64,000 nt of DNA from Myxococcota bacterium (GTDB lineage Bacteria; Myxococcota_C; UBA6777), in contig JAKLKB010000041.1 in assembly GCA_023150835.1 (NCBI GenBank), positions 810 to 64,809 of the forward strand. Direction: 5' to 3'. The position numbers and the translations under genes are program-made. Shown here piece after piece: positions 18,801 through 37,419 of the stretch. How positions within the stretch are numbered: position 1 is the stretch's first letter; each line of letters begins with the position of its first letter. Below the pieces are notes generated by a model. That model worked only from the letters and a program-made list of their open reading frames with translations. It did no database searches and was not told where the DNA came from.

Positions 18801-18958
18801 CGCTCTCGCTCCTTCGTGCCTTTTGCCAAGTTGTACCGCCTCGAAAACTTTATCGCCGCCTAGCCTAGCCGATCTGGGAACGAGCATCAAGAACGCTGTG
18901 CGCAAACAAAACCTACCGATATGGGTCATCTCTCGCTCGGAAAGGGCTTACGCAGTAG

Positions 18959-19088
18959 GCAAAACCCCCCATGTTCGCGGCACTTCAAGCGGAGTCGCCA
19001 TTGGTTTGAGCAACGTCGGCTCACACCGTCCATACGGGTCAAGGGAGCCGCACGAAGGCAGTGGAGCGTGGGGTGACACCCCACAAAA
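18959..19088 (+). repeat. Dispersed ~130-bp intergenic repeat (MITE/REP-like), copy 1
   Basis: Blocks aaaacccc-atgttcgc, tcaagcggag, acggg(g)tcaaggg and gtgggg..cccca shared with copies at 32616, 52431 and 53940. Confidence 0.75.
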
Positions 19089-19135
19089 CAAGAAGTGCCG
19101 ATCCGAAGTCGGATCAAGAAAGAAGCCGAAGAGGA

Positions 19136-22135
19136 TTAGGGGGCGAGGCAGCGGGCTTTGTAGGTCACGGTGATGGTGGAGCCGACTTGGGGGGTCGAAG
19201 AGATAGAGAAAGAGATGCTGTTGGCGTTGGCGTTGAAGGTCCATCCTGACGCGCCTTGTGCAACGGTTTGGCCATCCACCTTGACTTGGAGGGTGGCAGG
19301 ATCAGCGGGACGTGACAAGAAAAATTCGCTGCGCAGACCAAAGGTGACAGCCCCGAGTTGGTTGAGGGTATTGGCCCAGTTTTGGTCACAGATCGAGGCT
19401 TGCACCCCCTTCATCAAAGAGGCGATCTCCCAATAACGCGGAGCGGCCTTGACTTTGGTTCCCGAGGGGGGAGTACAGCCATCGGGCATCTGCCCAACGA
19501 CCGACGAGGCGCGCACATCGTCTCCACGAATTCCTTTGAGGGATCGGAAAAAATTAACATAGAACTGGACCGCTTCGGGCGAAGAGTCTGTCTCATCGGA
19601 CACATAGATGATCGACAGAGCGGCTTCGCTGCGATAAAAACCCTTGTTGCATCCGCCGAGTCGGTCGGGTTGAAGCGCATAATACGAGGCGGTCAAGCCT
19701 TGTTCGGTCCCTGAACCTTGCAGACCGACTTTGACGTTATCTGCAAATTTTTGCGGTCCGTTGGGGGTTTGTGGAGTGACAACGGTCGGTGTTCCGCGAA
19801 AACAACCTGTGGCAGGGATGGCAGGGCGGCTGTCGCGTTTGCAAAGCCCGTCGCTTCCGAGTTTGTACTTGCTACCGGGGACGCCACAATCTGCATCGGT
19901 TGTGGTGACGGCGATGTGATAGTCGACTTGGAGACGTGAGGCCCATTGGAAGAAAGAGGAAAGGTTGGCGGAGAGGTTGTTTTGGTTGTCGAGCATCGAG
20001 TTGGAGTCGTCGATCACAAAAAGGATATCGACTTTGGGAGTGCCGATCTGCTTGAAGGTATCGGTCTGTTCGTCGGTATCAACCCCGCGTGCGCTGAGCG
20101 GCACGATATAAGGGGACTGCCCGGGGGCGGAGTTGATCACTTCAAGAGTCCGTTGATCGGGGCCCAAAGCGCTCGGAACATAGGCCAGTTTCACGGTGGC
20201 GCTTTGCCCGTACAACAACGTCAGCGGAAGGTTGGGGGCTTGGCGCAAACGGAACTCTGTATCGTTGGTCTTTCCGTCGATTTGGAGCGCCGAGACGGTG
20301 AGAGGATCTTGGCAGGTATTGAGGATCTCCAGAGCGTAATCCAAGCCTCGGCAGCCTTGTTGTGTCGCGCCCATATCCAAGGGGGAAGGCAAGACTTCGA
20401 TGCAAGCTTTGCCACTTGCACCGAGCAAGTTGACGTTCAATTGGGGGTTGACTTTGTCGCTAGAGAGCAAGGCCAAGGTGCCTTGGCTTTGTGCGGCCCC
20501 GCGAGGCGTGTACGAAAGATCCAGAACCAGCCGTTGTGCGGGTGGGATCACTTCGCCTTGGGGGTTGAGTGTGGTTTGGATCGAAAAGACTTGCGACGGA
20601 TTGACGGTGAGGTTGGCTTGAAACAACGTGCAATCTTCGTAGCCGATGTTTTCGATTTGGACCTTGCCTGCGCGAGAAGCGCCTGTTGGGACGAAACCAA
20701 AGTTTAAGGTCGAAGGGATGGCGCGAAGCTCACAAGGGCTGCTTGACGCATTGCGCGAAAGCAAGGGGATCTCCATCACAGGCCGCAGCGGATCATCGGT
20801 CTCAAGCAACAGCTTTCCTTGATCGGCGTTATCGTCGGCTTTGGTGAAGCGGATCTTGAGGGTCAAGATCTTGCTTGGCGCGAGGGTGGCGGGAGTAGAG
20901 GGAGGTTCCACAAAGTCGAACTCGCGGCTGGTGGTGGCCGAAAACGAGGCTTTTTTGAGCGTGCAGTCTTTGTTGCCTTGGTTGCTCAGGGTGAGGGTCT
21001 TTTCTTCGCTGCGTAGAAAAAGAAGCTGCGTTGGCAAGGCACTAAGGATACACCCCGAGGGTTGAACTTCGAGCGCGACGATGGCCTTGGGTGTGTCGGG
21101 GTCGTTGCTTTCGACTTCCACGGCCCCCCCTGCGGGCTTGGGTTCAACGGCGTTGTAAGTGACGGTGATCTCTTGTGTGTTGGCGGGGGCAAGCGTCAAA
21201 GGCAGCGTCGGTAGGCTGTCTAGGCCAAACTCTTTGGGGGTGCTTGCCGAAAGCTTGATCGCCGAGACCAACAAGGGCTGAGCTCCTGCGTTTCGGATCA
21301 CAAAGGTGCGTTTTCCTTGGCTTCCTGCGGGGACATCATCAAAGAGCAAACGCACAGGCTCAAGCAAAATGCGCGGCGCATCGCGTTCTCCGACCACCCG
21401 CACCACAAGAGGCTGTGTGCTTGCGTCGTGAACAAAAGACAGGGCAGCTTCGGATTGGTGGCCTTTTGGAGTATAAGAGACATCGATCTTGGCGGACTCA
21501 CCGGGTTTAAGCAATGCAGGATACGTCAGAGCCTTGACGATCGCAAAAGCGGCTTCGGCGTTGCCTTCCCATGCCCCCGAACGCACCTGAACGTCGGCTT
21601 GTCCTTGGTTGGTCAGGGTCAAGGTCAGGGTCTTGCTGGTGTTTGGGGCGAATTTGCCAAAGTCAAGCGGATTTGGACTGGCTTGCAACACACCGCTGAC
21701 GAGACTCGAACGGATCGGTACACGTGTATCCCCCGTGTCTGCGACGTTTCGGCCCGTGTGGACGATGCTCAAATAGCCACTCGCTACTCCCGCAACTTTG
21801 GGCGTATAACGGATCTTGACACGCAGGCTCTGTTGGGGTTCTAACGCACGCGGTAGCCCCAAAGCTTCGACCCCCACAAGAGAAAAAGCCTCTCCTTGTT
21901 CGAGCGGTTTTAAGGTTAGGCTGCTCAAAGACAAAGCCACCTGCCCGATATTGCGTAACAACACTTCACGATCGCTGCTTTGCCCGATCGGAAGAGCCGG
22001 AAAGATCACGTTTTCGGGTTGTACCTCCAGTTCGGCATACGTCCCCGTCCCTGTGTTGTCGCACTCGCAAGCCGCCAATCCCATCGAAAACAACAGCACC
22101 AAACAAACACCCACCATCCACACACGTTGCCGCAT
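19136..22135 (-). CDS. Lipoprotein with ~6 ASH/choice-of-anchor-D Ig-like repeats and C-terminal vWA domain
   Basis: Lipobox LAAC; repeats of P..L.FG...LxNxG; vWA MIDAS-like VDILFVIDDSNSM, IAVTTTD, IIYVSDETD. Confidence 0.88.
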   Translation of the reverse strand: MRQRVWMVGVCLVLLFSMGLAACECDNTGTGTYAELEVQPENVIFPALPIGQSSDREVLLRNIGQVALSLSSLTLKPLEQGEAFSLVGVEALGLPRALEPQQSLRVKIRYTPKVAGVASGYLSIVHTGRNVADTGDTRVPIRSSLVSGVLQASPNPLDFGKFAPNTSKTLTLTLTNQGQADVQVRSGAWEGNAEAAFAIVKALTYPALLKPGESAKIDVSYTPKGHQSEAALSFVHDASTQPLVVRVVGERDAPRILLEPVRLLFDDVPAGSQGKRTFVIRNAGAQPLLVSAIKLSASTPKEFGLDSLPTLPLTLAPANTQEITVTYNAVEPKPAGGAVEVESNDPDTPKAIVALEVQPSGCILSALPTQLLFLRSEEKTLTLSNQGNKDCTLKKASFSATTSREFDFVEPPSTPATLAPSKILTLKIRFTKADDNADQGKLLLETDDPLRPVMEIPLLSRNASSSPCELRAIPSTLNFGFVPTGASRAGKVQIENIGYEDCTLFQANLTVNPSQVFSIQTTLNPQGEVIPPAQRLVLDLSYTPRGAAQSQGTLALLSSDKVNPQLNVNLLGASGKACIEVLPSPLDMGATQQGCRGLDYALEILNTCQDPLTVSALQIDGKTNDTEFRLRQAPNLPLTLLYGQSATVKLAYVPSALGPDQRTLEVINSAPGQSPYIVPLSARGVDTDEQTDTFKQIGTPKVDILFVIDDSNSMLDNQNNLSANLSSFFQWASRLQVDYHIAVTTTDADCGVPGSKYKLGSDGLCKRDSRPAIPATGCFRGTPTVVTPQTPNGPQKFADNVKVGLQGSGTEQGLTASYYALQPDRLGGCNKGFYRSEAALSIIYVSDETDSSPEAVQFYVNFFRSLKGIRGDDVRASSVVGQMPDGCTPPSGTKVKAAPRYWEIASLMKGVQASICDQNWANTLNQLGAVTFGLRSEFFLSRPADPATLQVKVDGQTVAQGASGWTFNANANSISFSISSTPQVGSTITVTYKARCLAP

Positions 22136-22184
22136 TCAAACCTCCCATGCTTTCCAAGAGCGTTCCTCGCTCCGCCGCTCGACT

Positions 22185-22739
22185 TTATCTCGACACAGAG
22201 GGTTCCGACAACGCACCCGAAAACGCCCGAAACAACATCCATGCACTCAAACTCATCCCGCTCCACATGGCTCCCGAGACGATCGCTTGGTCGATCTCTT
22301 GCGCGCTGCAAACCACGCTTTCGATCTCTTCGCCTTCTTCGGGCGATGGCGCGGCAACCTGTGTGGCCTCACGCGCCCAATACACCAGACTCCGCTCGTC
22401 CAACAACCCCACGCAAGGGGAGACGCTTCCTAACGCGATCCACTCCTGCGCGCAATAGCCTGTTTCTTCGCGCAACTCCAACATTGCTCTTTCTTCGGGC
22501 GAAGCCGTCGCATCGCACGCTCCCCCCGGAAACTCCAACCCCCAACCGCCCCACAAATAGCGGTACTGGCGCACCAACACAAAACGACCATCGCTGCGCT
22601 GTGGAACCACCAACACTGATCCCGGCGTCCGCGCATAATAGTAACGCCCCCTTCGCCCTGTTGGTGTCTCGTACTCTTCTTCGATCGAAGACCAATACGG
22701 ATTCTCATGCAAGATCTGTTGAGAGACTCGTTTCCACAT
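22185..22739 (-). CDS. NUDIX hydrolase (ADP-ribose pyrophosphatase-like)
   Basis: LVRQYRY, LEFPGG...ELREETGY; Nudix box partly divergent. Confidence 0.88.
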   Translation of the reverse strand: MWKRVSQQILHENPYWSSIEEEYETPTGRRGRYYYARTPGSVLVVPQRSDGRFVLVRQYRYLWGGWGLEFPGGACDATASPEERAMLELREETGYCAQEWIALGSVSPCVGLLDERSLVYWAREATQVAAPSPEEGEEIESVVCSAQEIDQAIVSGAMWSGMSLSAWMLFRAFSGALSEPSVSR

Positions 22740-22751
22740 TGTTTTGCGGCC

Positions 22752-24071
22752 TTACGAACGGCTTTTTCCTGTGCGTTGTGTGTCGGACTGTGCTGTGCGT
22801 TGTGCGTCGGACTGTGTGTTGGGCAAGATCCAGCGGCTGTCTCGTTGGCTGGAAAAATCATCCAACGGATCAATTAATTCGGGAAAATGGCCGAGACGTT
22901 GCGCCAACAAACTTTGCAAGGCACGTTCGAGATCCGGGATCTGCTGACGCAAAGAAGTGTAATCTTCGACAGGAAGGTGCAGCAACAGTCCCCCCAAAGG
23001 CATCGAGACCGTCACTTGCGCAGGCAAGCCCATCAACAGAGAATACTCCCCCACGATATCTCCTTCCCCCAAGGTATCCACCCCACGATAACCCTCTTGG
23101 GTGCTGCGAGCGTGTGCTTCGCCATGCAAGATCACAAACAACCCCGGGGATGGATCGCCTTCGCGAAACAAGATCTCTGCGGGTTGTGCAACGCGAAGTC
23201 GGAACAAGTGATGAAACGTGTCATGCTCATCGATCTGAAATGCAGAAAGCCCGACTTTTAACAAGTTTTCGAGATAACGCTTTCGGATGATCTCTTGGAG
23301 TTGCTCTAAGATCGCGGGCTGTTTCTCCGCCAAAAACAAGAGATCTTCGGAGGCGATACGCCAAGCCATACTTTCGCAAGTGACGTACACGGTGGCACGG
23401 TGCGGGATATCCGTCAACAAGGACATCTCTCCAACATAGGTGGGCGCTTCGACCGTAGCCAACTCAACAAACTGACTGTCCGAGCGCTCTTGTTCAACGA
23501 CAGCCGTTCCGTGTGACAACAAGTAAAAAGCTCGCTCGCGTTGGCCTTGTCGGATCAATTCCGTCCCTGCATGGAGGCTCAATGGTTCGATATGCTTTGC
23601 AAAGGTCACAAAGTCCGCAAATTGGAGTTCGTGGAAGATCGGAACATTCGGAAGTTCATGTTCAGGAAGACGCGGAACCATCGAGATATCGACGCCTGTT
23701 GCATAGGCCATCCGAACCAGCGCATAACGCTCGCTTGGCAAGCGCGCTTCGAGATCTTGAACCAAAGCTCGGCGACGCACTGGCATGACGGGAAAAAGAA
23801 CGGGTTCTTGTTCACGATCTGCTTTGCGACAAAAACGTGCGGCCAATCGTTCGAGGGCTTCGTCTTGGGCTTTGCCTTGCAAATAAAGACGCGCCATCGC
23901 CAAGCCGCTAAAAAAATCTCCCACCCGCGCAGAGGCCCGTACAGACGCAAGGATCATATCTTGCGCAGCACGCAACCAACCATCCGCGATCAACGCACGC
24001 GCCAACGCAAAACGCGATTGGATGGACGTGGGATCTTTCAAAACCCCCAACAGTGTCTCGCGCAAGTTCAT
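22752..24071 (-). CDS. Protein with two cNMP-binding domains (paralog 2)
   Basis: LIRQGQ...FYLLSHG...GEMSLL and LFREGD...FVILHG...GEYSLL; N-terminal helical region. Confidence 0.88.
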   Translation of the reverse strand: MNLRETLLGVLKDPTSIQSRFALARALIADGWLRAAQDMILASVRASARVGDFFSGLAMARLYLQGKAQDEALERLAARFCRKADREQEPVLFPVMPVRRRALVQDLEARLPSERYALVRMAYATGVDISMVPRLPEHELPNVPIFHELQFADFVTFAKHIEPLSLHAGTELIRQGQRERAFYLLSHGTAVVEQERSDSQFVELATVEAPTYVGEMSLLTDIPHRATVYVTCESMAWRIASEDLLFLAEKQPAILEQLQEIIRKRYLENLLKVGLSAFQIDEHDTFHHLFRLRVAQPAEILFREGDPSPGLFVILHGEAHARSTQEGYRGVDTLGEGDIVGEYSLLMGLPAQVTVSMPLGGLLLHLPVEDYTSLRQQIPDLERALQSLLAQRLGHFPELIDPLDDFSSQRDSRWILPNTQSDAQRTAQSDTQRTGKSRS

Positions 24072-24180
24072 CCGCCCCCCTGCCCATCAAAAGCTCGCAC
24101 TATCAACGCAATGCCCCTTACATCAGAACTTTTCGCGCACACGATATCCGCACGCCCTGCCCTCTCAAAAACTCTCCGTC

Positions 24181-25515
24181 TCAAGATCGACCCTCCAATT
24201 TGGGTGGCCGCTTACCTGCTCCCACGGGAGTATCCGCATCGACTTCCCACCGTTCGGAAGGCAAGGCATCGGTATCTTCGGCAGGAATCAACCAAGACGC
24301 ATCAAGATGCTCATAGCTCAGCGGGATCGGGTTCACGATGTCGCGCAGGGCCTGCGTGCGCAACGTCATCAACTCGCGCAATGTGCTTTCCAAAGAAGGC
24401 TCCTCATTGCGCAACTGACGGTACGCATCGACCGGCAAGTGCAACACAATGCCCCCATCAGGCATCCAGATCCCCGCATTGGTCGGCTCGTTGTTGAGCA
24501 ACGAAAACTCCCCGAAAGTATCGCCCTCCCCCAATGTCGCCAGATGAACACGCCGACCATCGGGCGTTTGCATCAAGACCACAGCTTCTCCGTGTAGGAC
24601 CACAAACAAGCCGGGTGGAGGTGAACCTTGGGCAAACACTTGTTCGTCGACTTCGATCACCCGCACGCGAAAAGCCCGCAACAACCGCTCTTTGAAAGAA
24701 ATCGCCGAGAATACAGGACTCAAGCGCATCAAGTTCTCGATCTGCCGTTGCCGAACGATCACACGGATCTGCTCAAGGATCTCAGGATGCCTTCGCCCCA
24801 ACAAAGCCAACTGCTCCGCGCTGATCGACCACGCGATCACGTGGCTGCGCGCAAACACCGAAGCCCGATGCGAAACGGTCGTCAAAAGCCCCATCTCTCC
24901 GACGTACGACGGTGCTTCCACCAACGCAAGGACAAAGCTTTGCCCGTTACTCCGCTCTTGTCGCACTTCCACCACCCCATGCGACAGCAGATAAAATTGC
25001 TGCTCTTTCTCTCCTTGGCGCAGCAACAACTCTCCCGCAGACAACTTGCGCGGAACCAAGGACAACGCCATCTGGATAAATTCGCTATACGTCAGATCGC
25101 CAAACAGCGGAACATAGGGCATCGGTGTACCTTCTGGATAACCGATACCTGCGAGATCCGTCCCGATCTTTCGCGCAAAACGCACCTGTTCTTCCAACTC
25201 CAACGGCAGCGCGATCACTCGCGGCGAAGGCTGCGGCGGTGGTGGCACAAACCCTGCGACCCGTTGATCCACCGCAAAACGACGCGCCAAAAAAGACAAC
25301 ATCTCTTCGTGCAGATGTTCAGGAAGATGCAAGCGACACAACGCAAGCGCACTAAAAAACTCACCCCGCGAGGCCGCTGCATCGACCGCCGCACAAGCGA
25401 CTTCTTCCGCCCAGACCTTGTATCCCAACGCCGCCAACTCGTTCGACAACAGCAACCGCGACTTCACCGATCCCGGCTGCCTTGCCAACGTCAGAATCGC
25501 TTCTTGCAAGCTCAT
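24181..25515 (-). CDS. Protein with two cNMP-binding domains (paralog 1)
   Basis: LLRQGE...FYLLSHG...GEMGLL and VFAQGS...FVVLHG...GEFSLL; colinear with the downstream paralog. Confidence 0.88.
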   Translation of the reverse strand: MSLQEAILTLARQPGSVKSRLLLSNELAALGYKVWAEEVACAAVDAAASRGEFFSALALCRLHLPEHLHEEMLSFLARRFAVDQRVAGFVPPPPQPSPRVIALPLELEEQVRFARKIGTDLAGIGYPEGTPMPYVPLFGDLTYSEFIQMALSLVPRKLSAGELLLRQGEKEQQFYLLSHGVVEVRQERSNGQSFVLALVEAPSYVGEMGLLTTVSHRASVFARSHVIAWSISAEQLALLGRRHPEILEQIRVIVRQRQIENLMRLSPVFSAISFKERLLRAFRVRVIEVDEQVFAQGSPPPGLFVVLHGEAVVLMQTPDGRRVHLATLGEGDTFGEFSLLNNEPTNAGIWMPDGGIVLHLPVDAYRQLRNEEPSLESTLRELMTLRTQALRDIVNPIPLSYEHLDASWLIPAEDTDALPSERWEVDADTPVGAGKRPPKLEGRS

Positions 25516-27029: not shown

Positions 27030-27976
27030 CGCGCTCTCCCCACCAACAAACTGTACAACACCGCCATCCGCACAGGAACACCATTCGCCACTTGCTGCTC
27101 GATCACACTGCGCGGGCTATCCGCCAACACCCCTTCGATCTCCACATCCCGATTCATCGGCCCCGGGTGCATCACCAAAGCATCGGGATGAGCGTGTTCC
27201 ATTACCTTTGCGGTCAACTGATACCGCGCTTGGTACTCTGACAACGAAGGAAACAATCCACTCTGCATTCGCTCTCGCTGCATCCGCAACGCCATCACGG
27301 CGTGCGCTCCTTCGACCGCTTCTTCCAAGCGAAAACAGCGCTGAACCCCCGGCCAATGCCCCAGTTCTGTCGGCAAGAGCGTACGCGGACCACACAACAC
27401 CACTTCCGCCCCAAGCTTCGTCCACAAGCCGATATTCGACCGCGCCACCCGCGAGTGCATCACGTCTCCAACGATCACCAAGCGCTTTCCTCGAAAACCA
27501 TCAAATCCCCGAAAACCTTGGCGAAAAGTATATCCATCCAACAGCGCTTGCGTCGGATGAGCCCGACGCCCATCTCCTGCATTCACGATCGCAGCGTCCG
27601 TCCAACGACTCAATTGATGCGGCGTCCCTGCAACGCCATGACGCACCACATACAGATCCGCTTGCATCGCATCGATCGCCTTGAGCGTGTCCTTCAAAGA
27701 TTCGCCTTTCGATAGGCTCGAACCACCCGCCGCAAAGTTCAACACCTCTGCACTTTGCGCTTTGGCCGCACGCTCAAAACTCAACCGCGTCCTTGTGCTG
27801 TTTTCAAAAAACAACGTCACGATCGTCAATCCCTGCAACGCAGGCACTTTCTTTACTTTTCGCTGCATCACCTCCACCATCGCGTCCGTGGTTCGCCACA
27901 ACGACTCGATCTCCGAGGCTGACCAATCCTCCAGATCCAACAGGTGACGATGACGTATCTGCACCGCTTCCATCAT
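27026..27976 (-). CDS. pyrB: Aspartate carbamoyltransferase catalytic subunit
   Basis: FFENSTRTRLSF, KGESLKDT, NAGDG..HPTQALLD, HSRVARS, LRMQRER, MHPGPMNR. Confidence 0.98.
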   Translation of the reverse strand: MMEAVQIRHRHLLDLEDWSASEIESLWRTTDAMVEVMQRKVKKVPALQGLTIVTLFFENSTRTRLSFERAAKAQSAEVLNFAAGGSSLSKGESLKDTLKAIDAMQADLYVVRHGVAGTPHQLSRWTDAAIVNAGDGRRAHPTQALLDGYTFRQGFRGFDGFRGKRLVIVGDVMHSRVARSNIGLWTKLGAEVVLCGPRTLLPTELGHWPGVQRCFRLEEAVEGAHAVMALRMQRERMQSGLFPSLSEYQARYQLTAKVMEHAHPDALVMHPGPMNRDVEIEGVLADSPRSVIEQQVANGVPVRMAVLYSLLVGRAR

Positions 27977-28521
27977 GATCCACGCTCCAACAAATCCACG
28001 CCTTCTTGCCCATCCGTCGAATGAAATCGCACCTTGATCACTTCGCTGCGACTGGTCTGGATCGCTCTCCCCACATAATCCGCTTGAATCGGTAGCTCTC
28101 GATGCCCCCGATCCACCAACACTGCCAAACGGATCAACGATGGACGCCCTAGATCCATCAAAGCATCCAGCGCCGCACGCGCTGTTCGCCCCGTATACAG
28201 GACGTCATCACACAACACCAACTCCCGATCATGGATATCCACAGGAACCTCCGTTCGACGCACGATCGGCTGCACACCGATCTCCGTCAAATCATCCCGA
28301 TACAACGTGATATCCAACTTGCCAACAGGTAGCTCGACTCCCTCATAGTGCTTGATCAGCTTCGACAAATGCTCCGCCATCGGGATCCCTCGCGTATGAA
28401 TCCCCACCAACACCACTCCCTCCAACCGATCGCTCCGCTCGATGATCTCGTGCGCCATCCGATTCACCGCACGATTGATCTCCCCTTCATCCATCAGCCT
28501 CTTCTTCCAACGCAGTTCCAT
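27973..28521 (-). CDS. pyrR: Pyrimidine operon regulator / uracil phosphoribosyltransferase
   Basis: RMAHEIIER, GIHTRG, LDITLYRDD, DDVLYTGRT, DRGHRELPI; GGAGGG RBS before ATG 28521. Confidence 0.97.
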   Translation of the reverse strand: MELRWKKRLMDEGEINRAVNRMAHEIIERSDRLEGVVLVGIHTRGIPMAEHLSKLIKHYEGVELPVGKLDITLYRDDLTEIGVQPIVRRTEVPVDIHDRELVLCDDVLYTGRTARAALDALMDLGRPSLIRLAVLVDRGHRELPIQADYVGRAIQTSRSEVIKVRFHSTDGQEGVDLLERGS

Positions 28522-28649
28522 CAACTTCCCTCCAACATCGCCGATCTCTTCGCGATCTGATCCCTCCAACACCTCACATCATCATAAAAACAAAAACAAA
28601 AACAAAAACTTATCGCGATATCACCAGCCTCCCAAGCGATCCGCCGCAG

Positions 28650-28677
28650 AGTCTACCGAGCAGGATCTGAATGTCAA
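28650..28677 (-). promoter_or_regulatory. Putative sigma70 promoter of pyrRBC
   Basis: Minus strand reads TTGACA-16 nt-TAGACT. Confidence 0.6.
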
Positions 28678-28919
28678 TCTTCTTCTAGGGCAGTATCATT
28701 ATGAGTCACTTGAGACAAGTGAGACGAACGCACGTATCACGTCCAGATGAAAACCTAAGTCATTGAAAAAAAATGTCTTTTTGTTTTTGAATCGCTCATC
28801 CAAACAGAAATCGTGCGCTTGATCACACTCTGCGATCGCAGGATCGGCGGTGGCTTGTTTGCACAAGCAAAGATTGCTTCTTCATCGAATTTATTTAGAA
28901 AAAATAAAAAATTCCATTC

Positions 28920-28934
28920 TGGTACAATTCATGC
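28920..28934 (+). promoter_or_regulatory. Putative sigma54 (-24/-12) promoter
   Basis: TGGTAC-AATTC-ATGC gives exact GG-N10-GC spacing; preceded by an AT-rich tract and palindromes. Confidence 0.6.
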
Positions 28935-28945
28935 CCTATCGCCAA

Positions 28946-29467
28946 ACGCCAGCAACGAAGCGGCCACATCAGCAACGACAAAACATACAAAGCAACACAC
29001 CCAAACAACAACGGTTTGCGCAACGGTACAACAACAAGACTTCACAACCAAAGTACCCGCACCAAGAAAAACATCTGAGACTCCTCAGCACCACAACAAG
29101 CCTTCACACCCGTATGTTTCGTCGTGCACCATATCGAAGCGACCCGCATCCACAACAGCATTTCACAAACCAAACACAACAGTGAAAACATCCGTGTCGC
29201 CTTCGTCTCCGCCCATAACAAAGCTCTCTGTTCTCAAACAGCCTGATCTTCTTCTTTGATCTTGACCTCCAGATGGATCAACAAAATTTGAGAACACAAC
29301 CCAACATCCTCGACATCGGTTTCGGCAGTGCAAACTCAGCGAGAAAAACAACGCCGATCCAGATCACCCACAAACATCCCCATCCGATCGCTCCAAGTAG
29401 GGTTCTTTCTACAACAATCTCATTTTAAGAAAATTCCTTTCTCAAAGAGAAAGTGTCTCTTTCTTAA
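28946..29467 (+). ncRNA. Candidate CA-rich regulatory RNA (boundaries inferred)
   Basis: Lies between the sigma54-like promoter and a hairpin; no credible ORF; many ACAAC/AACAA motifs. Confidence 0.4.
29425..29467. terminator. AT-rich inverted repeat, possible bidirectional terminator
   Basis: ttaagaaa...ctttctc-aaa-gagaaag...tttcttaa; 45 bp past the stop of the convergent HD gene. Confidence 0.4.
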
Positions 29468-29512
29468 ACATTCTCACAATGATATTTATCATGTAGAGAC
29501 GCCTTTCTGCGC

Positions 29513-31039
29513 TCATTTTAAGACAAACGTGTCTTCGACCCGAAGGAAGAGGCGATCCCATTGTTGGAGAAGGGTTTGGTGAGCGCGTTGGAGGGCGGAA
29601 GTCGTGTCATGCTGACCTTGTTCGATCTGCCAAACGCCAACTTCGCGAAGGATCATTTTGATCCATCGACCTTGGGGGGGTTCTGTGGCACCTTTTTCTG
29701 CAGCGATTTGAGCGGCGAGAGAACGGATCGCGTGTCCGTGTAGCAGGTAGGGGAAGAGTAGCGGTGCTTCTTTGGGATCGGGATGGGGGAAGCGGAGCTG
29801 ATGAGCGTGATCGCTCACCCAAAAAGCGATCGGTTGATCGAGGGGAGGCCAAACGCTTTCGAGAGGAACAAGGAGAGCATTCAGCCACACGCTATTGGAA
29901 AGCGTCGTTCGTGCGCACATTGCGAGGTGTTGCAAGCGGCGCAGATGCTGGCGGGCCTGTTCTTGGGTTTGGAGCAGAGCGTGCTGTTGCGCCCACAAAA
30001 GATGCTCTTGTAAGACGGTGAGTGTGGATGTTGTGCTTGCCGAAGCAAGTTCTTCGTGAGAAGAGGTATGATCGGCGGGTGGGATCAGAGGCTTTGACAA
30101 AAAGATCTGGATCTCGTGGGGGGCGAGAAGGGGTTCGAGGCGTTGATCCCACCGCGCAAATTCCTGCTTGGCAAGCGCATAAAACTGACGCATCAGCCGA
30201 TCGTCGTTGTGGCCGGGTGCATGAGCCTGACGATCCGCGATCGCAAAAAGCGCCAGATCGGTGAGCATCTCAGCCCGCCGTTCGAGTTTGCGCAACAAGC
30301 CAAGCAGCTTCGGGGAAGGGGGTTCGACACGAAGATCAGCCTCGCGGATCTCCAAAACCTCGTCATGAAGCAGCACCAAGCGTTGGATATCATGACGAAG
30401 CGCATCCGCCACCCCGAGGCGCGTCAGCGCATGGTGTGCGATCTCTGCGGAAACCTTGGGATGACCGACAAAACGGATCCCGCCGTCAGGTTTGTATTGG
30501 TGACCAAGGATCGGGACTGTTTTCCCTGCATCGTGGAAAAACGCAAGCAGCACAAGACGCAAGCGCGTGATCCGAGGGGTCTCCATCTCTTCAAAGAGAG
30601 TTTGTAGGCAGCGGATGACCGAGAGCGTGTGTTCCCAAACACTTTCGTGGTGATAAAGATTCGCAGATTGCTCCAGATCCCATCCCACCGATGTCGGCGG
30701 CAGAGGAAACAAAAACGACAACAGCCGCGTTTTTCGCAGCCATCGCAAGCCGCTCTCGACACAAGGCGACGCAAAAAGCTCCGCGATCGCCGACCACCAT
30801 TGCGATCCGTGCGATACGTGTTCTTGATCCATCTGCTCGACGACTTCGGAAAATGCGTCAAGGACAAATTGCTCCAATCTTGCGTTGTGTTGTGCAGCAG
30901 CGTGGATCGCAACGATCATCGACCACGGCTCTTGCGCGATCCGCTCCCGCCATCCCTCTTTGACAGCGATCAACGATCTACTGTCTTTGTCCTCACTCCA
31001 GCCCCACCAAAGAGACCTTTCCGCGTTGTGTTTGTGCAT
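29513..31039 (-). CDS. HD-domain protein related to the C-terminal part of CCA-adding enzyme/poly(A) polymerase (start uncertain; ORF open to 31258)
   Basis: YHHESVWEHTL, FFHDAGK, FVGHPKVSAEIA, LVLLHD, ADRQAH; tail LLHGHAI..PPQGRWIKMILREV. Confidence 0.8.
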   Translation of the reverse strand: MHKHNAERSLWWGWSEDKDSRSLIAVKEGWRERIAQEPWSMIVAIHAAAQHNARLEQFVLDAFSEVVEQMDQEHVSHGSQWWSAIAELFASPCVESGLRWLRKTRLLSFLFPLPPTSVGWDLEQSANLYHHESVWEHTLSVIRCLQTLFEEMETPRITRLRLVLLAFFHDAGKTVPILGHQYKPDGGIRFVGHPKVSAEIAHHALTRLGVADALRHDIQRLVLLHDEVLEIREADLRVEPPSPKLLGLLRKLERRAEMLTDLALFAIADRQAHAPGHNDDRLMRQFYALAKQEFARWDQRLEPLLAPHEIQIFLSKPLIPPADHTSSHEELASASTTSTLTVLQEHLLWAQQHALLQTQEQARQHLRRLQHLAMCARTTLSNSVWLNALLVPLESVWPPLDQPIAFWVSDHAHQLRFPHPDPKEAPLLFPYLLHGHAIRSLAAQIAAEKGATEPPQGRWIKMILREVGVWQIEQGQHDTTSALQRAHQTLLQQWDRLFLRVEDTFVLK

Positions 31040-31592
31040 CTTGTGTCCTGCTGTACTTGCAAAGGATGACAACCGACGGGCCTGATCGATCCCGCCTGTT
31101 CTTTTTTGCACACACTCCACCCCGCCGCCAAGCCCACAACCCCCTCCAGCCTCTTGCCATCGGCCACGCTGGGCCCCAAAAAAACGAAAGCCTTCTCCCA
31201 TCAAAACAGGAGAAGGCTTGCAGCAAGAAAAAGGAGGAGAGCACGCACGAGCAACCACCGCTCACCGCACCACAAGGAGGCCCTCGTGCGGCTCTAAGGA
31301 CATTTGGGTCTATTGATGCCTGACAGCTTACCCCACGAAAGCCGCCGAAGCGAGACTCCTTATGCCCACATCCACGAGCAGGTCTACCCCATAAAAATCC
31401 ATTCGATGGCGTTCGTATCAAGCAAGCATTTGATCTCGATCAAGAGAAAACAAAAAAGGCTTGTTCAACAAGCCCTTTTCTTCCGCAAACAGCATCTCGT
31501 GCTACCCATTCAGCACAACACGAGATGCCGATCAATCCGAAGGATCAGATCTCTGGCGACCTTTTTATCGCCAGAGATCCGCGAAGCGACAT

Positions 31593-32871: not shown

Positions 32872-35800
32872 ATGGCAGAAACGCAGCAAGCGCTCGAACG
32901 ATTTTCCAAATCCGACTATTTGTTGGCCCGAGGGCAAGGCTCTTTTACGCGGCTGTTTCGGGCTTTTATGGATACGAGCATCGGCTTTTTCATCCGATTG
33001 TGCGTCTTTGGCGCGCTTTTTTGGATGGGGTGGACTGCCGCAAACCTCGAACCCAACGGCGATCTCTCCTTCTATTTGTTGCCTTTTATTTTGTTTTCTA
33101 TCCCTGTGTTGTTGCTTTCATCGGGCCGTTCGATGGTCGAAGCAGTACTCAACCGTGTGTTGACCTTGGCCCTCGTGGGCGTCTGGGTTTGGAGCGCACT
33201 TTGGTACTTCAAGTACCCCCAATTTGGCTATAGCGCAGTCTCCCTACTGACGGGCTTGATCTTGCTGTGTGTGCCGATCTGGCTGGCGTGGTTGCGCAAG
33301 CGCCAAGAAAGTTTTCACGCAGACAAGGCGATCTTGTTGGTCGCGTGGATTATCGGTCTTGTGATGTTGTTCGGGCTGTTGGGGCTTTTGGTGTATTATA
33401 TCGGCATCCAAAAGGCCAGTCCCGAAGCCTCTAGCTCGATCCTTGTGGCTGTGGGAACGTTCTTGTTCTTTCTGACGATCACCATCGTTCGGCTCTTTTG
33501 GATGGATGATGCCCGCAACCGCCGCGCCATGCGCATCGATCACGTCCCCCGAGGGGATGCGCTTTTGTTGCTCGAATGGTTCATCCCCCAATCGATGTAC
33601 CTTGTGATCATGATCCCTTGCCTGATCTTCGCAGAGGCCCTGTTGTTCGACACGGTGTATCGTTTTACCCGACGCCCCCAAGAAGAAACCATCCGTCGGA
33701 TGTTGCAGATGCCCACCGTCCCCAACGCAAAGCATCTTGCGCCCCAAACCAAAGCGACCAAAGACACGCTCGAAGCCCCCCCGCCCACGACGCCGCCACG
33801 CAGCCAAGCCCCGCTTAAAGCACGTTTTGGGGAATGGGTGTTGTTTGGCAGCAAGCCTTATGTGTACCCAAAGATCCGTGGCGTCGAGATCCCCGCACCC
33901 TTTTGGTTCAAATACCTTGGGCGTCTACTGCTCGGTTTGATCTTGGCCTTTTTGATCACCCAACAGCGCAATATCTGGATGCTTTTTCGATACACTTACG
34001 AATCTGCGTTGGAACTCAAACGCGCAGGCATGGAGCGCTCTCATTTTCACGAGTCTCCCGCACAACATCTGCATAAGATCCAAATGGATATGCGCGCCTT
34101 GTTGACTTATTACGGCAGCATCTGGCGGCGCATCTTTTTATACGCCACCAGCGCTCCCTTTTCGTGGCTGGGTTGGCGCTTGATCCTTGAACCCGGCCAA
34201 TCCTTTTGGTTGTTGCTCGCAAAGCTCCGACGCTTGCTTGCGCGGCGTTGGGAAAGTGGTCTGTTCTCTTCCGCGATCTTACTTGCCGCGATTACCGGCT
34301 TTTTTACTTCGCTTCAGCCTTGGCTTGCGGGTGCGTTCTATCGCAGTTTTCTTCCCACCTTTTTAAGCGGCCTCTTCATCTTCGTAATGCACCAATTCAT
34401 CGGCCTTCGCCCACCTCGCCTCCAAAACAACTGGCTTTGGCTGATGCTTCCTACGCACATCTTGCTCGCGCTACTTTTCTTTTTTCTAGCGATGGGCGTC
34501 GGAAATATGGAACATACCAGCCAACAATTCATCTGGTTTTTGTGCCAAGTGACAGCCCTTGCGTTTCCTGCGGTGTACCTGTTTGGAGGGGCGCGCCATG
34601 AAGGCCCTGCCGATCATGACGACGAAGCGGACGCCCCTGATACACGAAGAGAAGCCCGCCAGTTTTTGCTTGCGCAGCTCGCTTCGATCCCTTACCGCGA
34701 TTGGGTGGTGTCTGCTCTCACTTACCGTTTGCACTCTGTCCGAAGTGAGATCCTGACCTTGATCCTCGTCTTGCCTTCTTACTTGATCGGCTTTGTCTTT
34801 TGGCTACGAGGCGTTGTCACCACCGTCGAGGCGCGTCGCCGATGGACGATGGCCACCTTAGGCCGCGCAAGTGCCGCGTGGATCGCGCTGTTCTCCGTCA
34901 GCATCATTGTCGCCATCACCTATGAAGCCCTACAAACACACCAAGTCCCCACCGCAGAAGCCTTTGTATTGCTGCTGTTGTTGTTGCCTGCCTTCCTTTC
35001 ATGGGGTGCGGATACGCTCGTGGGACGGTGGATGCTCCGACGGCATGGGGCCTTGAACCTCTTTCAACAACAGCGACGTGATCAGATCGCCGCTGCAAGC
35101 ATCGTGGCGATCTCGTTTGCGGTCGTTGTTGCACTGCACTTGTTGCGCGGTCTCGAAGCCTCGTGGGCCGCGATCGGGGGGATGCTTTTGTATGTCCCCT
35201 TGGTCTTACCGTGGTTTACGTTGCTTGCTGTTTGGGAACGCCGCCGCGAACGCCTGCTGCACAGCCCCATTGAAACTGCATCCCACGACGACCTCCCTCC
35301 CGCACTTTACGAATCCCCCACCGCTCCTCGCAATATCGGAGACAGCCTACTGAACCGCTTTCAACTCCTCCTCCAAGAACTCGAACAGTGGCTCCAAGCC
35401 AAAACCTACCAAGTCGCCGCTGCACTCGGAAGAACCGATCAAGCCACACGCGAAGGTATGATCGACGTACTTGTCCAGTTGTTGGATGAATCCCAAAAAG
35501 CCCTTGTCAGCGGGCGTTGGTATCTCGAAGAAGAACGTGAACTCGATCGCGTCTACCAAGAATGGCTGGTCCACAGCAAAGAAGCCCACGATCACACCCA
35601 AGCCGCACGCGAACTCGCCGATTATTTCGCCCGAATACTCGACCTTTTTGGCTCGCTGATCTACGACTTGAGCCTCCCCGCCCGAAACAAATACCTCGAT
35701 CAAAGCCCCACCCGTGAACATGTCCTCGCTGCCCTCGAACGCACCCTGCTGCTCCCACACAGCCTGCACGAAGACATACCCGATACGCTTGATGCTTTGC

Positions 35801-37419
35801 GCGCCTTGATGATCCATCTGATCGAACGCGCTCCTGTCCCTCCCAAAGATGACCACGAACGCATCCGTATCTTTCGGATCATCGGCCTGATCGATGGAAA
35901 AGACAGCATCGCGTGGATGCGCGATTATCTCAAAACCAACGATGGGAAACGCCTCAAAAAAGAACTCTTGTCGGCCTGCCGTGGACAGGCTCGCCTCGCC
36001 GACTTGTTGTTTGAAGAACGCCAAAAAACCGATGAGGACGATCTGCGCCAAGCCATCGAACAAAGCCTCCTTCCGCTACGGCTTCCAACCCCTATCGCGC
36101 TCGCGTATCGGCGCTTTTTGGACGCCCAAACCCAAGAACAGCGCTTGCGTGAAACCCTCCAAACGCCCCTCCCCTCCGAAGAAGATCTCTGGGCACGCAA
36201 TGTCCGCCATGATCCCGATCGCCTCCACCTCGAACGCCGTCGCCTCGAATCCCTTCAACGTCGGGAACGCAGCCACCTCGCTATGTGGGAAGCCATGCGC
36301 GATCTCTACCACAGCACCTGTGGCTTTTTGCTCTCCGCCCTCAAAGAAAGCGCTGGCCCACGCTTGCCCGCTCTGCTCAACTTGGGATGGGAAAACAGCC
36401 AAGAACTCGATCAAACCCGTCAAGCCTTCGAAGAACAAGCGTGGGATGGCTTTGTCGAACGCCTTTTGTCTTCTCTCTTTTTGCGCTTTCACAACCCCCA
36501 AGACGCCGCCGCCTTCGACCCTCACACTCCCCCTCGCGCCCCTCGCGAGATCACTCGCCTTGCCCGACTCCTTGACAAAAAACACCTCTTGCTGATCGAA
36601 ATTGGCCTCGATCAACTCCCCCTCGTCTGGCGACGCCCCCTCCACAACCGACTCGCACAAGTCCTCTGGATGGGTGAAACTCCCAACGTCCAATTCTTCC
36701 CCCTCGACAACCCTCCCCCTCTACCCAACGATGCCGTCACTCTTTTGCGCGGCGTCCGTTGGGATCTTCACAATACTTTCCAGCCCCTTGACAGCTACTC
36801 TTACCGTTGGGGACTCGAATGGCTCGAAAAACTCGCTCATGCCGATGCCTTGCTCAAACCCGACGCCGAAACCTTGACCCCTTCAACCCCCGAACAACCC
36901 CAGCCTCCTCTTCCTGCACTCCCGCGCATCCGACGCCTCGCCCGAGTCTTTAGCCAGATCCCCGCACCTCACGCTCCCGAAGACCGCCACGTCGCCATCG
37001 CTATCTTCGATCGGATCTGGTCTCGCCTCCGTCTCCTTGAAGCCCTCCACATCGAACAACGCCAAGCCGTCCGAGGAAACGACCTGCTCAATTTCGACGC
37101 TGCCTGCACCCTCCTCGAAAACTTCTTACAAAAACACAAACAGCGCCAAATCCAGCACCTCCTCGATCTTCTCGAAGCCAACCTCCTCCCCTCCCTTCAC
37201 TTCGCTTACCTCCAGCGCGAGGACGACAACCTCGCTTGGTACCGCAAAGACACGCCCCGCGAAACCCTCGTCACCCTCAAAACCCACCCCCTCCATTCCG
37301 CCGAAGAACAACACCACAACCAACACATCCCCACCCCCGACGAACCCTTCCAAGAATACCACCCCTTCACCATCGACCAGCTCCCCGCCCTCCCCACTTC
37401 TTCTCCCCTCCTCGACTGA
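32872..37419 (+). CDS. Large polytopic membrane protein with helical C-terminal half (1515 aa), function unknown
   Basis: Long uninterrupted ORF; many hydrophobic segments in the first ~790 aa, then an L/E/R-rich helical region. Confidence 0.85.
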   Translation: MAETQQALERFSKSDYLLARGQGSFTRLFRAFMDTSIGFFIRLCVFGALFWMGWTAANLEPNGDLSFYLLPFILFSIPVLLLSSGRSMVEAVLNRVLTLALVGVWVWSALWYFKYPQFGYSAVSLLTGLILLCVPIWLAWLRKRQESFHADKAILLVAWIIGLVMLFGLLGLLVYYIGIQKASPEASSSILVAVGTFLFFLTITIVRLFWMDDARNRRAMRIDHVPRGDALLLLEWFIPQSMYLVIMIPCLIFAEALLFDTVYRFTRRPQEETIRRMLQMPTVPNAKHLAPQTKATKDTLEAPPPTTPPRSQAPLKARFGEWVLFGSKPYVYPKIRGVEIPAPFWFKYLGRLLLGLILAFLITQQRNIWMLFRYTYESALELKRAGMERSHFHESPAQHLHKIQMDMRALLTYYGSIWRRIFLYATSAPFSWLGWRLILEPGQSFWLLLAKLRRLLARRWESGLFSSAILLAAITGFFTSLQPWLAGAFYRSFLPTFLSGLFIFVMHQFIGLRPPRLQNNWLWLMLPTHILLALLFFFLAMGVGNMEHTSQQFIWFLCQVTALAFPAVYLFGGARHEGPADHDDEADAPDTRREARQFLLAQLASIPYRDWVVSALTYRLHSVRSEILTLILVLPSYLIGFVFWLRGVVTTVEARRRWTMATLGRASAAWIALFSVSIIVAITYEALQTHQVPTAEAFVLLLLLLPAFLSWGADTLVGRWMLRRHGALNLFQQQRRDQIAAASIVAISFAVVVALHLLRGLEASWAAIGGMLLYVPLVLPWFTLLAVWERRRERLLHSPIETASHDDLPPALYESPTAPRNIGDSLLNRFQLLLQELEQWLQAKTYQVAAALGRTDQATREGMIDVLVQLLDESQKALVSGRWYLEEERELDRVYQEWLVHSKEAHDHTQAARELADYFARILDLFGSLIYDLSLPARNKYLDQSPTREHVLAALERTLLLPHSLHEDIPDTLDALRALMIHLIERAPVPPKDDHERIRIFRIIGLIDGKDSIAWMRDYLKTNDGKRLKKELLSACRGQARLADLLFEERQKTDEDDLRQAIEQSLLPLRLPTPIALAYRRFLDAQTQEQRLRETLQTPLPSEEDLWARNVRHDPDRLHLERRRLESLQRRERSHLAMWEAMRDLYHSTCGFLLSALKESAGPRLPALLNLGWENSQELDQTRQAFEEQAWDGFVERLLSSLFLRFHNPQDAAAFDPHTPPRAPREITRLARLLDKKHLLLIEIGLDQLPLVWRRPLHNRLAQVLWMGETPNVQFFPLDNPPPLPNDAVTLLRGVRWDLHNTFQPLDSYSYRWGLEWLEKLAHADALLKPDAETLTPSTPEQPQPPLPALPRIRRLARVFSQIPAPHAPEDRHVAIAIFDRIWSRLRLLEALHIEQRQAVRGNDLLNFDAACTLLENFLQKHKQRQIQHLLDLLEANLLPSLHFAYLQREDDNLAWYRKDTPRETLVTLKTHPLHSAEEQHHNQHIPTPDEPFQEYHPFTIDQLPALPTSSPLLD

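Follow-up and report, generated by a model that had tools for sequence, protein, structure and literature searches.

What is encoded in the gap of about 1 kb between pyrR and the gene for an HD-domain protein in the genome of a Myxococcota bacterium? The question was raised by a first-pass annotation of a 64,000-nucleotide (nt) stretch of that genome (positions 810 to 64,809 of contig JAKLKB010000041.1, GenBank assembly GCA_023150835.1). We refer to this whole stretch as the window and give all positions in its coordinates. The gap itself was correctly described: the ATG of pyrR is at 28521 and the stop of the HD gene at 29513, leaving 990 nt (28522-29512) between them. It almost certainly contains a real noncoding RNA, encoded on the plus strand. 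As to its role, we propose a sigma54-driven, folded RNA that acts in trans as a decoy, and give this whole chain a probability of about 0.42.

The genome that holds the window (G000) is a 7.56-Mb draft in 239 contigs and is 93% complete. It was compared with two congeners, G001 and G002 (metagenome-assembled genomes (MAGs) of Myxococcota / Myxococcales bacteria), and with the three other genomes of the family, which lie outside the genus and are 86-94% complete. In the taxonomy used, family, order and phylum alike consist of these six genomes.

The locus is present in 20 of the 24 public sequencing runs listed, and six of these runs are RNA libraries, from five studies. We compared the contig sets of four RNA runs (X15, X17, X18 and X20, from four studies) with positions 27500-30500. 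Contigs of this kind reveal cover and junctions but neither the strand nor the exact ends nor the level of expression, and rare molecules are dropped from them. The following features are needed to describe the transcript.

28945..29354, plus strand: body of the noncoding RNA in this assembly (RNA contigs from 28959, 28960, 28963 or 28979 to 29354; 92% identity to G001)
29354..29355, plus strand: junction that lacks a segment of about 80-85 nt; the segment starts with TGAAACCAAAGCAGCCGCGAGGTCATGGGA, runs to GGGC-T9 and continues for another 20-25 nt
29424..29468, plus strand: hairpin of -12.6 kcal/mol (z score -2.41), terminator-like on both strands, with an RNA contig depth of 0-2.5

In all four runs RNA contigs begin at one of the four starts given above (that at 28979 is preceded by 13 nt of adapter) and follow the window to 29354 with no or one mismatch. 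Their word depths are 505.8, 184.2, 14.8 and 742.8 (X18 has RNA contigs at depths of 3.2 and 14.8), and contigs of pyrR, the upstream region and the HD gene reach 0-8 in the same runs. RNA contig depth is about 70 to 370 times that of the neighbor-gene contigs in the runs examined, and it drops about 70-fold or more at both ends of the RNA, towards the HD gene and towards pyrR. The flanks serve as the silent-stretch control, and this excess of at least 70-fold argues for RNA rather than contaminating DNA. In wastewater metatranscriptomes, the RNA is far more abundant than its neighbor genes. No contigs cover 28005-28610 or, in most runs, the region from 29419 onward, which is no proof of silence there.

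The 5' end of the RNA is 11-25 nt downstream of a sigma54-type promoter box, and the predicted start is near 28945. This agrees with the earlier expectation of a plus-strand transcript that begins just 3' of a -24/-12 box. A long transcript had also been anticipated and was found, at about 470 nt rather than about 520 nt. With the predicted start (11-12 nt past the -12 GC) and the last base of a U-tract as limits, the full-length RNA measures about 470 nt in the species of G000 and in G001 (470 nt in G001) and 577 nt in G002.

At 29354 the contigs of all four runs leave the window sequence and go on with TGAAACCAAAGCAGCCGCGAGGTCATGGGA. The same segment was found at the same place in G001, G002 and a metagenome contig (L016), and the window assembly is without it. 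The GGGC of the segment is followed by 8-9 T in the congeners (GGGC-U8/9 in the RNAs of G001, G002 and L016). The X17 and X20 RNA contigs extend 50 and 56 nt beyond 29354 and end here, at the T-run or within it. In X17 the depth drops at this point from 184 to 2.5, and a separate contig of that run (depth 2.5) links the T-run to 29355. The X18 contig ends 31 nt past 29354, and that of X15 runs 81 nt past it, beyond the T-run. The RNA ends in a U9 tract, just after the helix that closes a conserved 3' domain. The last approximately 60 nt of the RNA, U-tract included, are absent from the assembly after 29354. The strain transcribed in the samples has the segment and is otherwise identical to the window (0-1 mismatches). 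The absence of the segment from the window is due either to a local assembly error or to a strain deletion allele that has lost the U-tract together with three helix strands. The closing hairpin assigned to the RNA by the first-pass annotation (29425-29467) exists (z score -2.4), but it lies farther downstream than the 3' end seen in the RNA contigs. Possibly it serves the RNA and the convergent HD gene together, as a reserve or bidirectional terminator.

The plus-strand RNA folds far better than expected by chance. Compared with dinucleotide shuffles, the plus-strand fold has a z score of -4.72 in G001 and -5.23 in G002, and none of 100 shuffles folds as well in either case. The minus strand of G001 has a z score of -0.15 (41 of 100 shuffles fold as well); its absolute folding energy is lower, as it is G/U-rich. 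We infer that the plus strand is the functional one, because of this fold asymmetry and because the region has a promoter on its left and a U-tract on its right. The domains of the predicted fold are as follows.

28948..28964, plus strand: P1, the 5'-terminal hairpin GCCAGCAACGAAGCGGC (5 pairs, all invariant in the three sequences; local fold -5.9 kcal/mol)
28972..29125, plus strand: 5' domain, a variable CA-rich loop closed by the long-range helix P2 (about 28972-28986, paired with 29112-29125)
29135..29205, plus strand: central domain, a second CA-rich loop closed by helix P3 (CGAAGCGAC at 29135-29143, paired with GTCGCCTTCG at 29196-29205)
29211..29354, plus strand: 5' half of the 3' domain; the 3' strands of its closing helices are in the missing segment

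RNAalifold predicted 105 pairs from the three full-length sequences, and 95.2% of the cells pair. Double (compensatory) changes occur in 11 of the 105 pairs, compared with 3.9 +/- 1.6 in shuffles (0 of 500 reach 11) and with 0-4 when the pairing partners are shifted by 1-3 columns; the three sequences used for this count, two of them near-identical, are also those from which the structure was predicted. P2 corresponds to a 14-nt inverted repeat (I1, 93% complementary) and to helix 2 of the prediction (13 pairs, 97% of cells paired). P3 is helix 8, with 11 pairs and every cell paired. The G002 central domain has 67 extra nt, as inserts of 10 and 57 nt. The 3' domain comprises 200 nt and eight helices, the outermost of which ends directly at the U-tract, and helices 11-18 include 7 compensatory pairs. 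Within it, the hairpin 29245-29250/29275-29280 carries the invariant sequence UGACCUCCAGA (29263-29273) in its loop. The scaffold of 5' hairpin, two long-range helices and 3' domain is predicted to hold out two large, G-poor, CA-rich loops. The description of the region as a mere CA-rich tract does not survive, as this is a strongly folded RNA with conserved long-range helices.

The gap is 85% identical to that of G001 over nearly its whole length and 92% identical over 28900-29360, and it is alignable with that of G002 in blocks of about 75-88% identity. Interspecies indels are mostly not multiples of 3, and no open reading frame (ORF) with shared start, stop and frame was found on either strand in the three congeners. 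Thus, we consider the region to be noncoding. That the transcript is instead an mRNA for one or more small proteins can be set aside as the least probable explanation of all: plus-strand ORFs of 20-80 codons exist in each species, but none is kept in start, stop and frame, the highest local score between translations is only 63 (raw BLOSUM62, in short blocks only), the ATG of a 51-codon ORF at 29273 is AAG in G002 with a 1-nt indel, and Pfam finds nothing in the two longest ORFs.

The known range of the RNA is one genus and three species. BLAST searches with the gap and the RNA against sets of 41 and 6 genomes gave only weak, low-complexity matches beyond the genus (that in G003 sits in an ORF of 446 amino acids (aa)). 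A covariance model of the 3' domain (R1), run on the six genomes of the phylum, found only G001 (246 bits), G002 (216 bits) and G000 (115 bits). A pattern scan of genome contigs returned only the two congeners, and one of metagenome contigs returned L016 as its sole match, which is nearly identical to G001. No match to the RNA was found in phage and plasmid collections. Within G000 we found no second copy and no other CAACR-dense noncoding region with a sigma54 box. The DNA upstream of pyrR in G004 and G005, which belong to other genera, has no CA-rich or sigma54 element. The earlier claim that no described RNA family is involved holds: cmscan with Rfam 15 gave no match at gathering score over the whole window. 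At E values up to 1, the congener loci (L002 and L003) gave three weak, unrelated matches, which lie outside the RNA or at its margin. A literature search, at the level of search results rather than full texts, returned no description of the RNA.

Several elements upstream of the RNA are relevant to how it may be expressed.

28706..28726, no strand assigned: conserved upstream element TCACTTGAGACAAGTGAGAC, a palindrome here and a direct GTGAGAC repeat in G002
28813..28828, no strand assigned: candidate enhancer GTGCGCTTGATCACAC, an imperfect inverted repeat about 105 base pairs (bp) upstream of the -24 GG
28881..28919, no strand assigned: AT-rich tract between candidate enhancer and promoter, AT-rich in G000 and G001 and less so in G002
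28920..28934, plus strand: sigma54-type -24/-12 promoter TGGTACAATTCATGC (GG at 28921-28922, GC at 28933-28934)

The sequences listed by the first-pass annotation are exactly where it placed them (TCACTTGAGACAAGTGA at 28706-28722, TGCGATCGCA at 28831-28840, GCTTGTTTGCACAAGC at 28853-28868 and TGGTACAATTCATGC at 28920-28934). Its three palindromes are present as described, but only the first is partly kept in the congeners, and there as a direct GTGAGAC repeat. TGAGAC-R-AGTGAGAC is kept in all three genomes, and the 28706-28726 element may bind a regulator of the RNA promoter or of pyrR. Also kept in all three is GTGCG..GATCACAC, within the candidate enhancer; about 105 bp upstream is a typical place for sigma54 activator sites. 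The AT-rich tract is possibly a DNA bend or an IHF-type site.

The promoter proposed ahead of the RNA gains from comparison: its exact GG-N10-GC spacing is kept in all three species, with G002 reading TGGCATACTTTGTGC. The pattern TGG[CT]A[CT]-N5-NTGC has 89 matches in the 7.56-Mb genome, counting both strands, and is expected 1.8e-4 times per 30-nt window. A consensus scan of the plus strand near the box found no sigma70-like site. G000 encodes rpoN and has 32 matches to Sigma54_activat (PF00158), of which 19 are at E <=1e-31. The match nearest to the RNA (C196:1259-1729, window 450-920) is 28 kb away. From these sequence features, transcription of the RNA is very probably sigma54-dependent.

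What the loops display is a short motif, CAACR. By itself the A+C fraction, 0.676, is not remarkable, being only in the top 2.75% of 475-nt windows of the genome, which are mostly coding. Counts of CAACA against dinucleotide shuffles are as follows.

CAACA in G000: 9 observed, 4.0 expected, reached by 8 of 500 shuffles
CAACA in G001: 9 observed, 3.4 expected, reached by 3 of 500 shuffles
CAACA in G002: 17 observed, 4.2 expected, reached by 0 of 500 shuffles

There are 13 CAACR motifs in the G001 RNA and 23 in that of G002; the mean probability of being unpaired is 0.77-0.78 for the motifs and 0.51 over the RNA as a whole. Seven CAACR columns are common to G001 and G002, and the rest are lineage-specific. 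As the loops diverge, motif number stays the same or increases, which is what multivalent binding would predict. The 16-nt motif noted earlier at 29031, 29093 and 29152 proved to be one family (D1) of three 22-nt copies, spaced by 62 and 59 nt, and the 5' domain loop holds two of them (29031 and 29093). Its supposed weaker echoes near 29215, 29278, 29347 and 29411 are no better than unrelated CA-rich positions, with no more than 10 of 16 identities.

The two densest noncoding CAACR matches of the genome (G000:C76:18294-18551 and G000:C52:58388-58838) are long tandem arrays of a 22-23-nt unit (CTCTAAACAACACYRCCNCTCCT-like) near contig ends. They are unrelated to the RNA and have no spacers, so do not resemble CRISPR (clustered regularly interspaced short palindromic repeat) arrays.

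The mechanism that we consider has two steps. First, sigma54 and one of about 19 enhancer-binding activators would drive the RNA, with the activator bound at GTGCG..GATCACAC, about 105 bp upstream, so that the RNA would be made on a specific signal. Second, the RNA would be a trans-acting, multivalent decoy: its 13-23 CAACR motifs, most of them single-stranded, would bind and titrate a factor that recognizes single-stranded RNA. This factor would most likely be a protein, following the logic of CrcZ and RsmZ with another motif and another partner. The invariant 3' domain would provide stability, termination and perhaps a second specific contact. A decoy for a factor that binds single-stranded CAACR is favored because a scaffold with motif-bearing loops is the design of CrcZ and of RsmZ/CsrB, and because their classic partners do not fit. 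By analogy with these systems, titration through CAACR is a tentative reading, which we hold at a little under even odds.

CrcZ, which the first-pass annotation took as its model, is 407 nt long, is driven by an RpoN/CbrB promoter, carries six A-rich sites and titrates Hfq (PMC4063720). The RNA described here is like CrcZ and CrcY in length, in an RpoN-type promoter served by an enhancer-binding activator (here as predicted from sequence), in its repeated A/C-containing single-stranded motif, in its high abundance when induced and in its proposed role as a free-standing trans RNA. It is unlike them in that Rfam detects no homology of sequence or structure, in that CAACR rather than (A-R-N)n is enriched, and in its large conserved multi-helix scaffold. 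The crcZ gene adjoins the activator gene cbrB, and here no activator gene adjoins the RNA. Hfq, the partner expected from the CrcZ comparison, was likewise not found: G000 has no match to PF17209, and none of the six family genomes, which are incomplete MAGs, has one over the Pfam cut-off. Two sub-threshold PF17209 matches are inside 319- and 504-aa frames of another genus. Genome searches did not find ProQ either. The RNA is not a member of the CrcZ family; a CrcZ-like sponge function is plausible.

Myxobacteria are without hfq according to a study of the Myxococcus regulatory RNA Pxr, which has a predicted sigma54 promoter, an upstream enhancer region, three stem loops and an adjoining activator gene, pxrR (PMC5684412). 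Promoter type, enhancer region and the lack of hfq in a myxobacterial host are thus points of similarity between Pxr and our RNA. The RNA of the window differs in its length of 470-577 nt, in an activator match 28 kb away and in the absence of Rfam-detectable similarity. With CsrB, RsmY and RsmZ it shares a folded scaffold that shows many copies of a short motif in loops, and CsrA is encoded in G000. We rejected a CsrA sponge, as each RNA has just two GGA sites, and one of these is not conserved. The very high steady-state level and stable fold are reminiscent of 6S RNA and of Ms1 of mycobacteria. 6S RNA was rejected as an identification, since the canonical 6S is elsewhere (C148:63886-64072, 57.5 bits) and the RNA described here is not rod-shaped.

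Several observations weigh against the decoy proposal. No binding partner has been identified. The best conserved parts of the RNA are its helices and 3' domain, not the CA-rich loops, which could place the function in a particular fold or in a seed for base pairing, for example UGACCUCCAGA. CAACR was defined from the same sequences on which it was then tested, and of the 360 CAACR-dense windows genome-wide (at least 10 per 400 nt) nearly all are in long ORFs. The A-rich motif of CrcZ type is not clearly enriched: each RNA has 4-5 stretches of (A-R-N)n with n>=3, and 29, 168, 59 and 46 of 500 dinucleotide shuffles reach the same number. Covariation and motif conservation come from few events, in three species that amount in effect to two divergent lineages. 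The sigma54 box departs from the textbook consensus (TGGTAC, ATGC), and, as stated, no activator gene is adjacent. With strand-blind contigs, the strand call rests on fold asymmetry, promoter and U-tract. The 3' end is also unusual. An intrinsic (Rho-independent) terminator is a GC-rich hairpin directly followed by a U-tract. Here the U-tract follows a long-range helix with no compact local terminator hairpin; the last 70 nt of the RNA contain no hairpin better than shuffles (z scores +0.27 and -0.28), and the arm that pairs with ..UGGGC sits about 190 nt upstream (helix 11).

The main rival is a base-pairing riboregulator, in which C-rich seeds, chiefly the loop UGACCUCCAGA with its CCUCC resembling an anti-Shine-Dalgarno sequence, would pair with ribosome-binding sites of mRNAs and the CA loops would be spacers. 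We judge it rather unlikely. The loop is invariant in all three sequences, its stem shows a compensatory change (C-G to U-A) as well as a change from U-G to C-G, and the 3' domain that contains it is the best conserved part of the RNA. RNAs of the sX13 and RsaE type have chaperone-independent C-rich seeds, and the failure to find Hfq or ProQ would fit such seeds. However, the only perfect complement of the 10-nt loop core in the 7.56-Mb genome is the locus itself, and a length of 470-577 nt with 13-23 repeated motifs is far above the typical size of a seed-type small RNA. The enrichment of CAACA would also be left unexplained.

A more far-reaching form of the decoy proposal, to which we give still less credence, is that bacteria without Hfq and ProQ have a global system of post-transcriptional control, so far undescribed, in which the RNA is the antagonist. 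In that case, CAACR sites in its C-rich, G-poor, rut-like loops would titrate a general factor for single-stranded RNA, either a regulator specific for CA sequences or part of the core machinery, for example Rho or ribosomal protein S1.

Alternatively, the CA-rich loops may soak up G/U-rich small RNAs or mRNA leaders, making the RNA a sponge for other RNAs. The G/U-rich seed of GcvB pairs with C/A-rich elements and is itself sponged in this way, and the RNA has many single-stranded CAACR sites. We regard this as improbable, as no G/U-rich partner was identified and leaders at 1278 putative starts are not G/U-rich (UGUUG, at 167, is not clearly commoner than CAACA, at 134). Nor did the same 1278 starts show a general UGUUG-GGAGG leader context, which the RNA could have imitated or paired with.

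Much less probable again is a cis or local role, in which the act of sigma54 transcription matters, rather than its product; this transcription is divergent to the pyrR promoter, 270 bp off, and convergent on the HD gene. The neighbors are constant in all three species, the upstream region is common with the pyrR promoter, and read-through from the window allele, which is without the U-tract, would be antisense to the HD gene. Against this, the transcribed region is more conserved than the gap as a whole (92% compared with 85% identity to G001), compensatory pairs are present, the RNA accumulates to very high levels, and no such element is found upstream of pyrR in the other genera of the family.

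A minus-strand transcript, either a G/U-rich 3' untranslated region of the HD gene or a long pyrR leader, is highly improbable. Strand-blind contigs, the minus-strand location of both flanking genes and the lower absolute folding energy of that strand would be consistent with it. On the other side, the minus-strand fold is no better than shuffles (z score -0.15), several G-U pairs of the conserved plus-strand helices would become A-C mismatches, and pyrR has its own sigma70-like promoter downstream on the minus strand (28650-28677). Moreover, depth drops by about 70-fold or more at both ends, the left end is without a terminator, and the right end would require a start in an A9 run without a promoter-like site.

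The genes and signals around the RNA are as follows.

27973..28521, minus strand: pyrR, first gene of a pyrR-pyrB-pyrC operon (NCBIfam PyrR equivalog, 240 bits)
28650..28677, minus strand: sigma70-like promoter of pyrR (TTGACA 28677-28672, 16-nt spacer, TAGACT 28655-28650; 10 of 12 consensus matches)
29513..31258, minus strand: HD-domain gene, 581 aa, convergent to the RNA (Pfam HD, 35.6 bits)

Pfam identifies pyrR as Pribosyltran, the next gene of the operon as OTCace and the third as Amidohydro_1. The pyrR ATG at 28521 was set by alignment with G001 and G002, and both hexamer blocks of its promoter are kept in the alignment of all three genomes, so that the left 150 nt of the gap are accounted for. 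pyrR is transcribed divergently from the RNA and is no part of it. A role of the RNA as a PyrR decoy or leader was rejected: the Rfam PyrR-site model has no match on the window (gathering score) or on the congener loci L002 and L003 (E up to 1), and the RNA runs away from pyrR. Nor is it the leader of a plus-strand gene, as there is no plus-strand gene 3' of it. The HD gene is convergent to the RNA in all three species. Its protein has a weak, far sub-threshold similarity to the C-terminal region of actinobacterial CCA-adding enzymes (43.7 bits; cut-off 438.8) and offers no informative clue to the RNA.

We also identified repeats in the leader of pyrR. Its DNA contains a perfect (AAAAAC)4 tandem repeat at 28586-28609, which reads (GUUUUU)4 in the mRNA and is partly kept in G001 and G002. 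Over 12 nt the repeat is 100% complementary to TTTTTGTTTTTG (28778-28789), 170-180 nt off and across the pyrR promoter. A 20-nt repeat occurs twice (28527-28546 and 28561-28580; TCCCTCCAACA.C on the plus strand, G.UGUUGGAGGGA on the mRNA), and its second copy is the ribosome-binding site. Elsewhere in the window, 17574-25515 is a run of minus-strand genes for three cNMP-binding-domain proteins (451, 439 and 444 aa, the first with a PP2C phosphatase domain), a NUDIX protein and a 999-aa protein with HYDIN/ASH-type Ig-like repeats. A 1515-aa ORF on the plus strand at 32872-37419 has no Pfam match at E <=0.001.

A signal-controlled regulatory RNA that displays a motif and has a sigma54 promoter is known already. 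New here are the absence of detectable homology, the different motif, a conserved scaffold of much greater size and a host in which the usual RNA chaperones were not found. Large, structured, highly expressed noncoding RNAs that belong to no family are rare, and their study has often opened new biology. The host belongs to an uncultured, myxobacterium-like lineage of activated-sludge, bioreactor and wastewater samples, and in it a sigma54 promoter, a signal-dependent switch, appears to be joined to a scaffold that displays a CA-rich motif. Regardless of function, the locus provides a testable pair of sigma54 promoter and RNA and a new RNA family with a supported secondary structure. Its RNA contigs expose a local defect or deletion allele in the assembly, and the RNA is a possible marker transcript for the genus in wastewater metatranscriptomes. 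If the RNA is a decoy, its partner would reveal global post-transcriptional control in such bacteria. If it is the antagonist arm of a system centered on a general factor, an environmental signal would reprogram translation or termination genome-wide.

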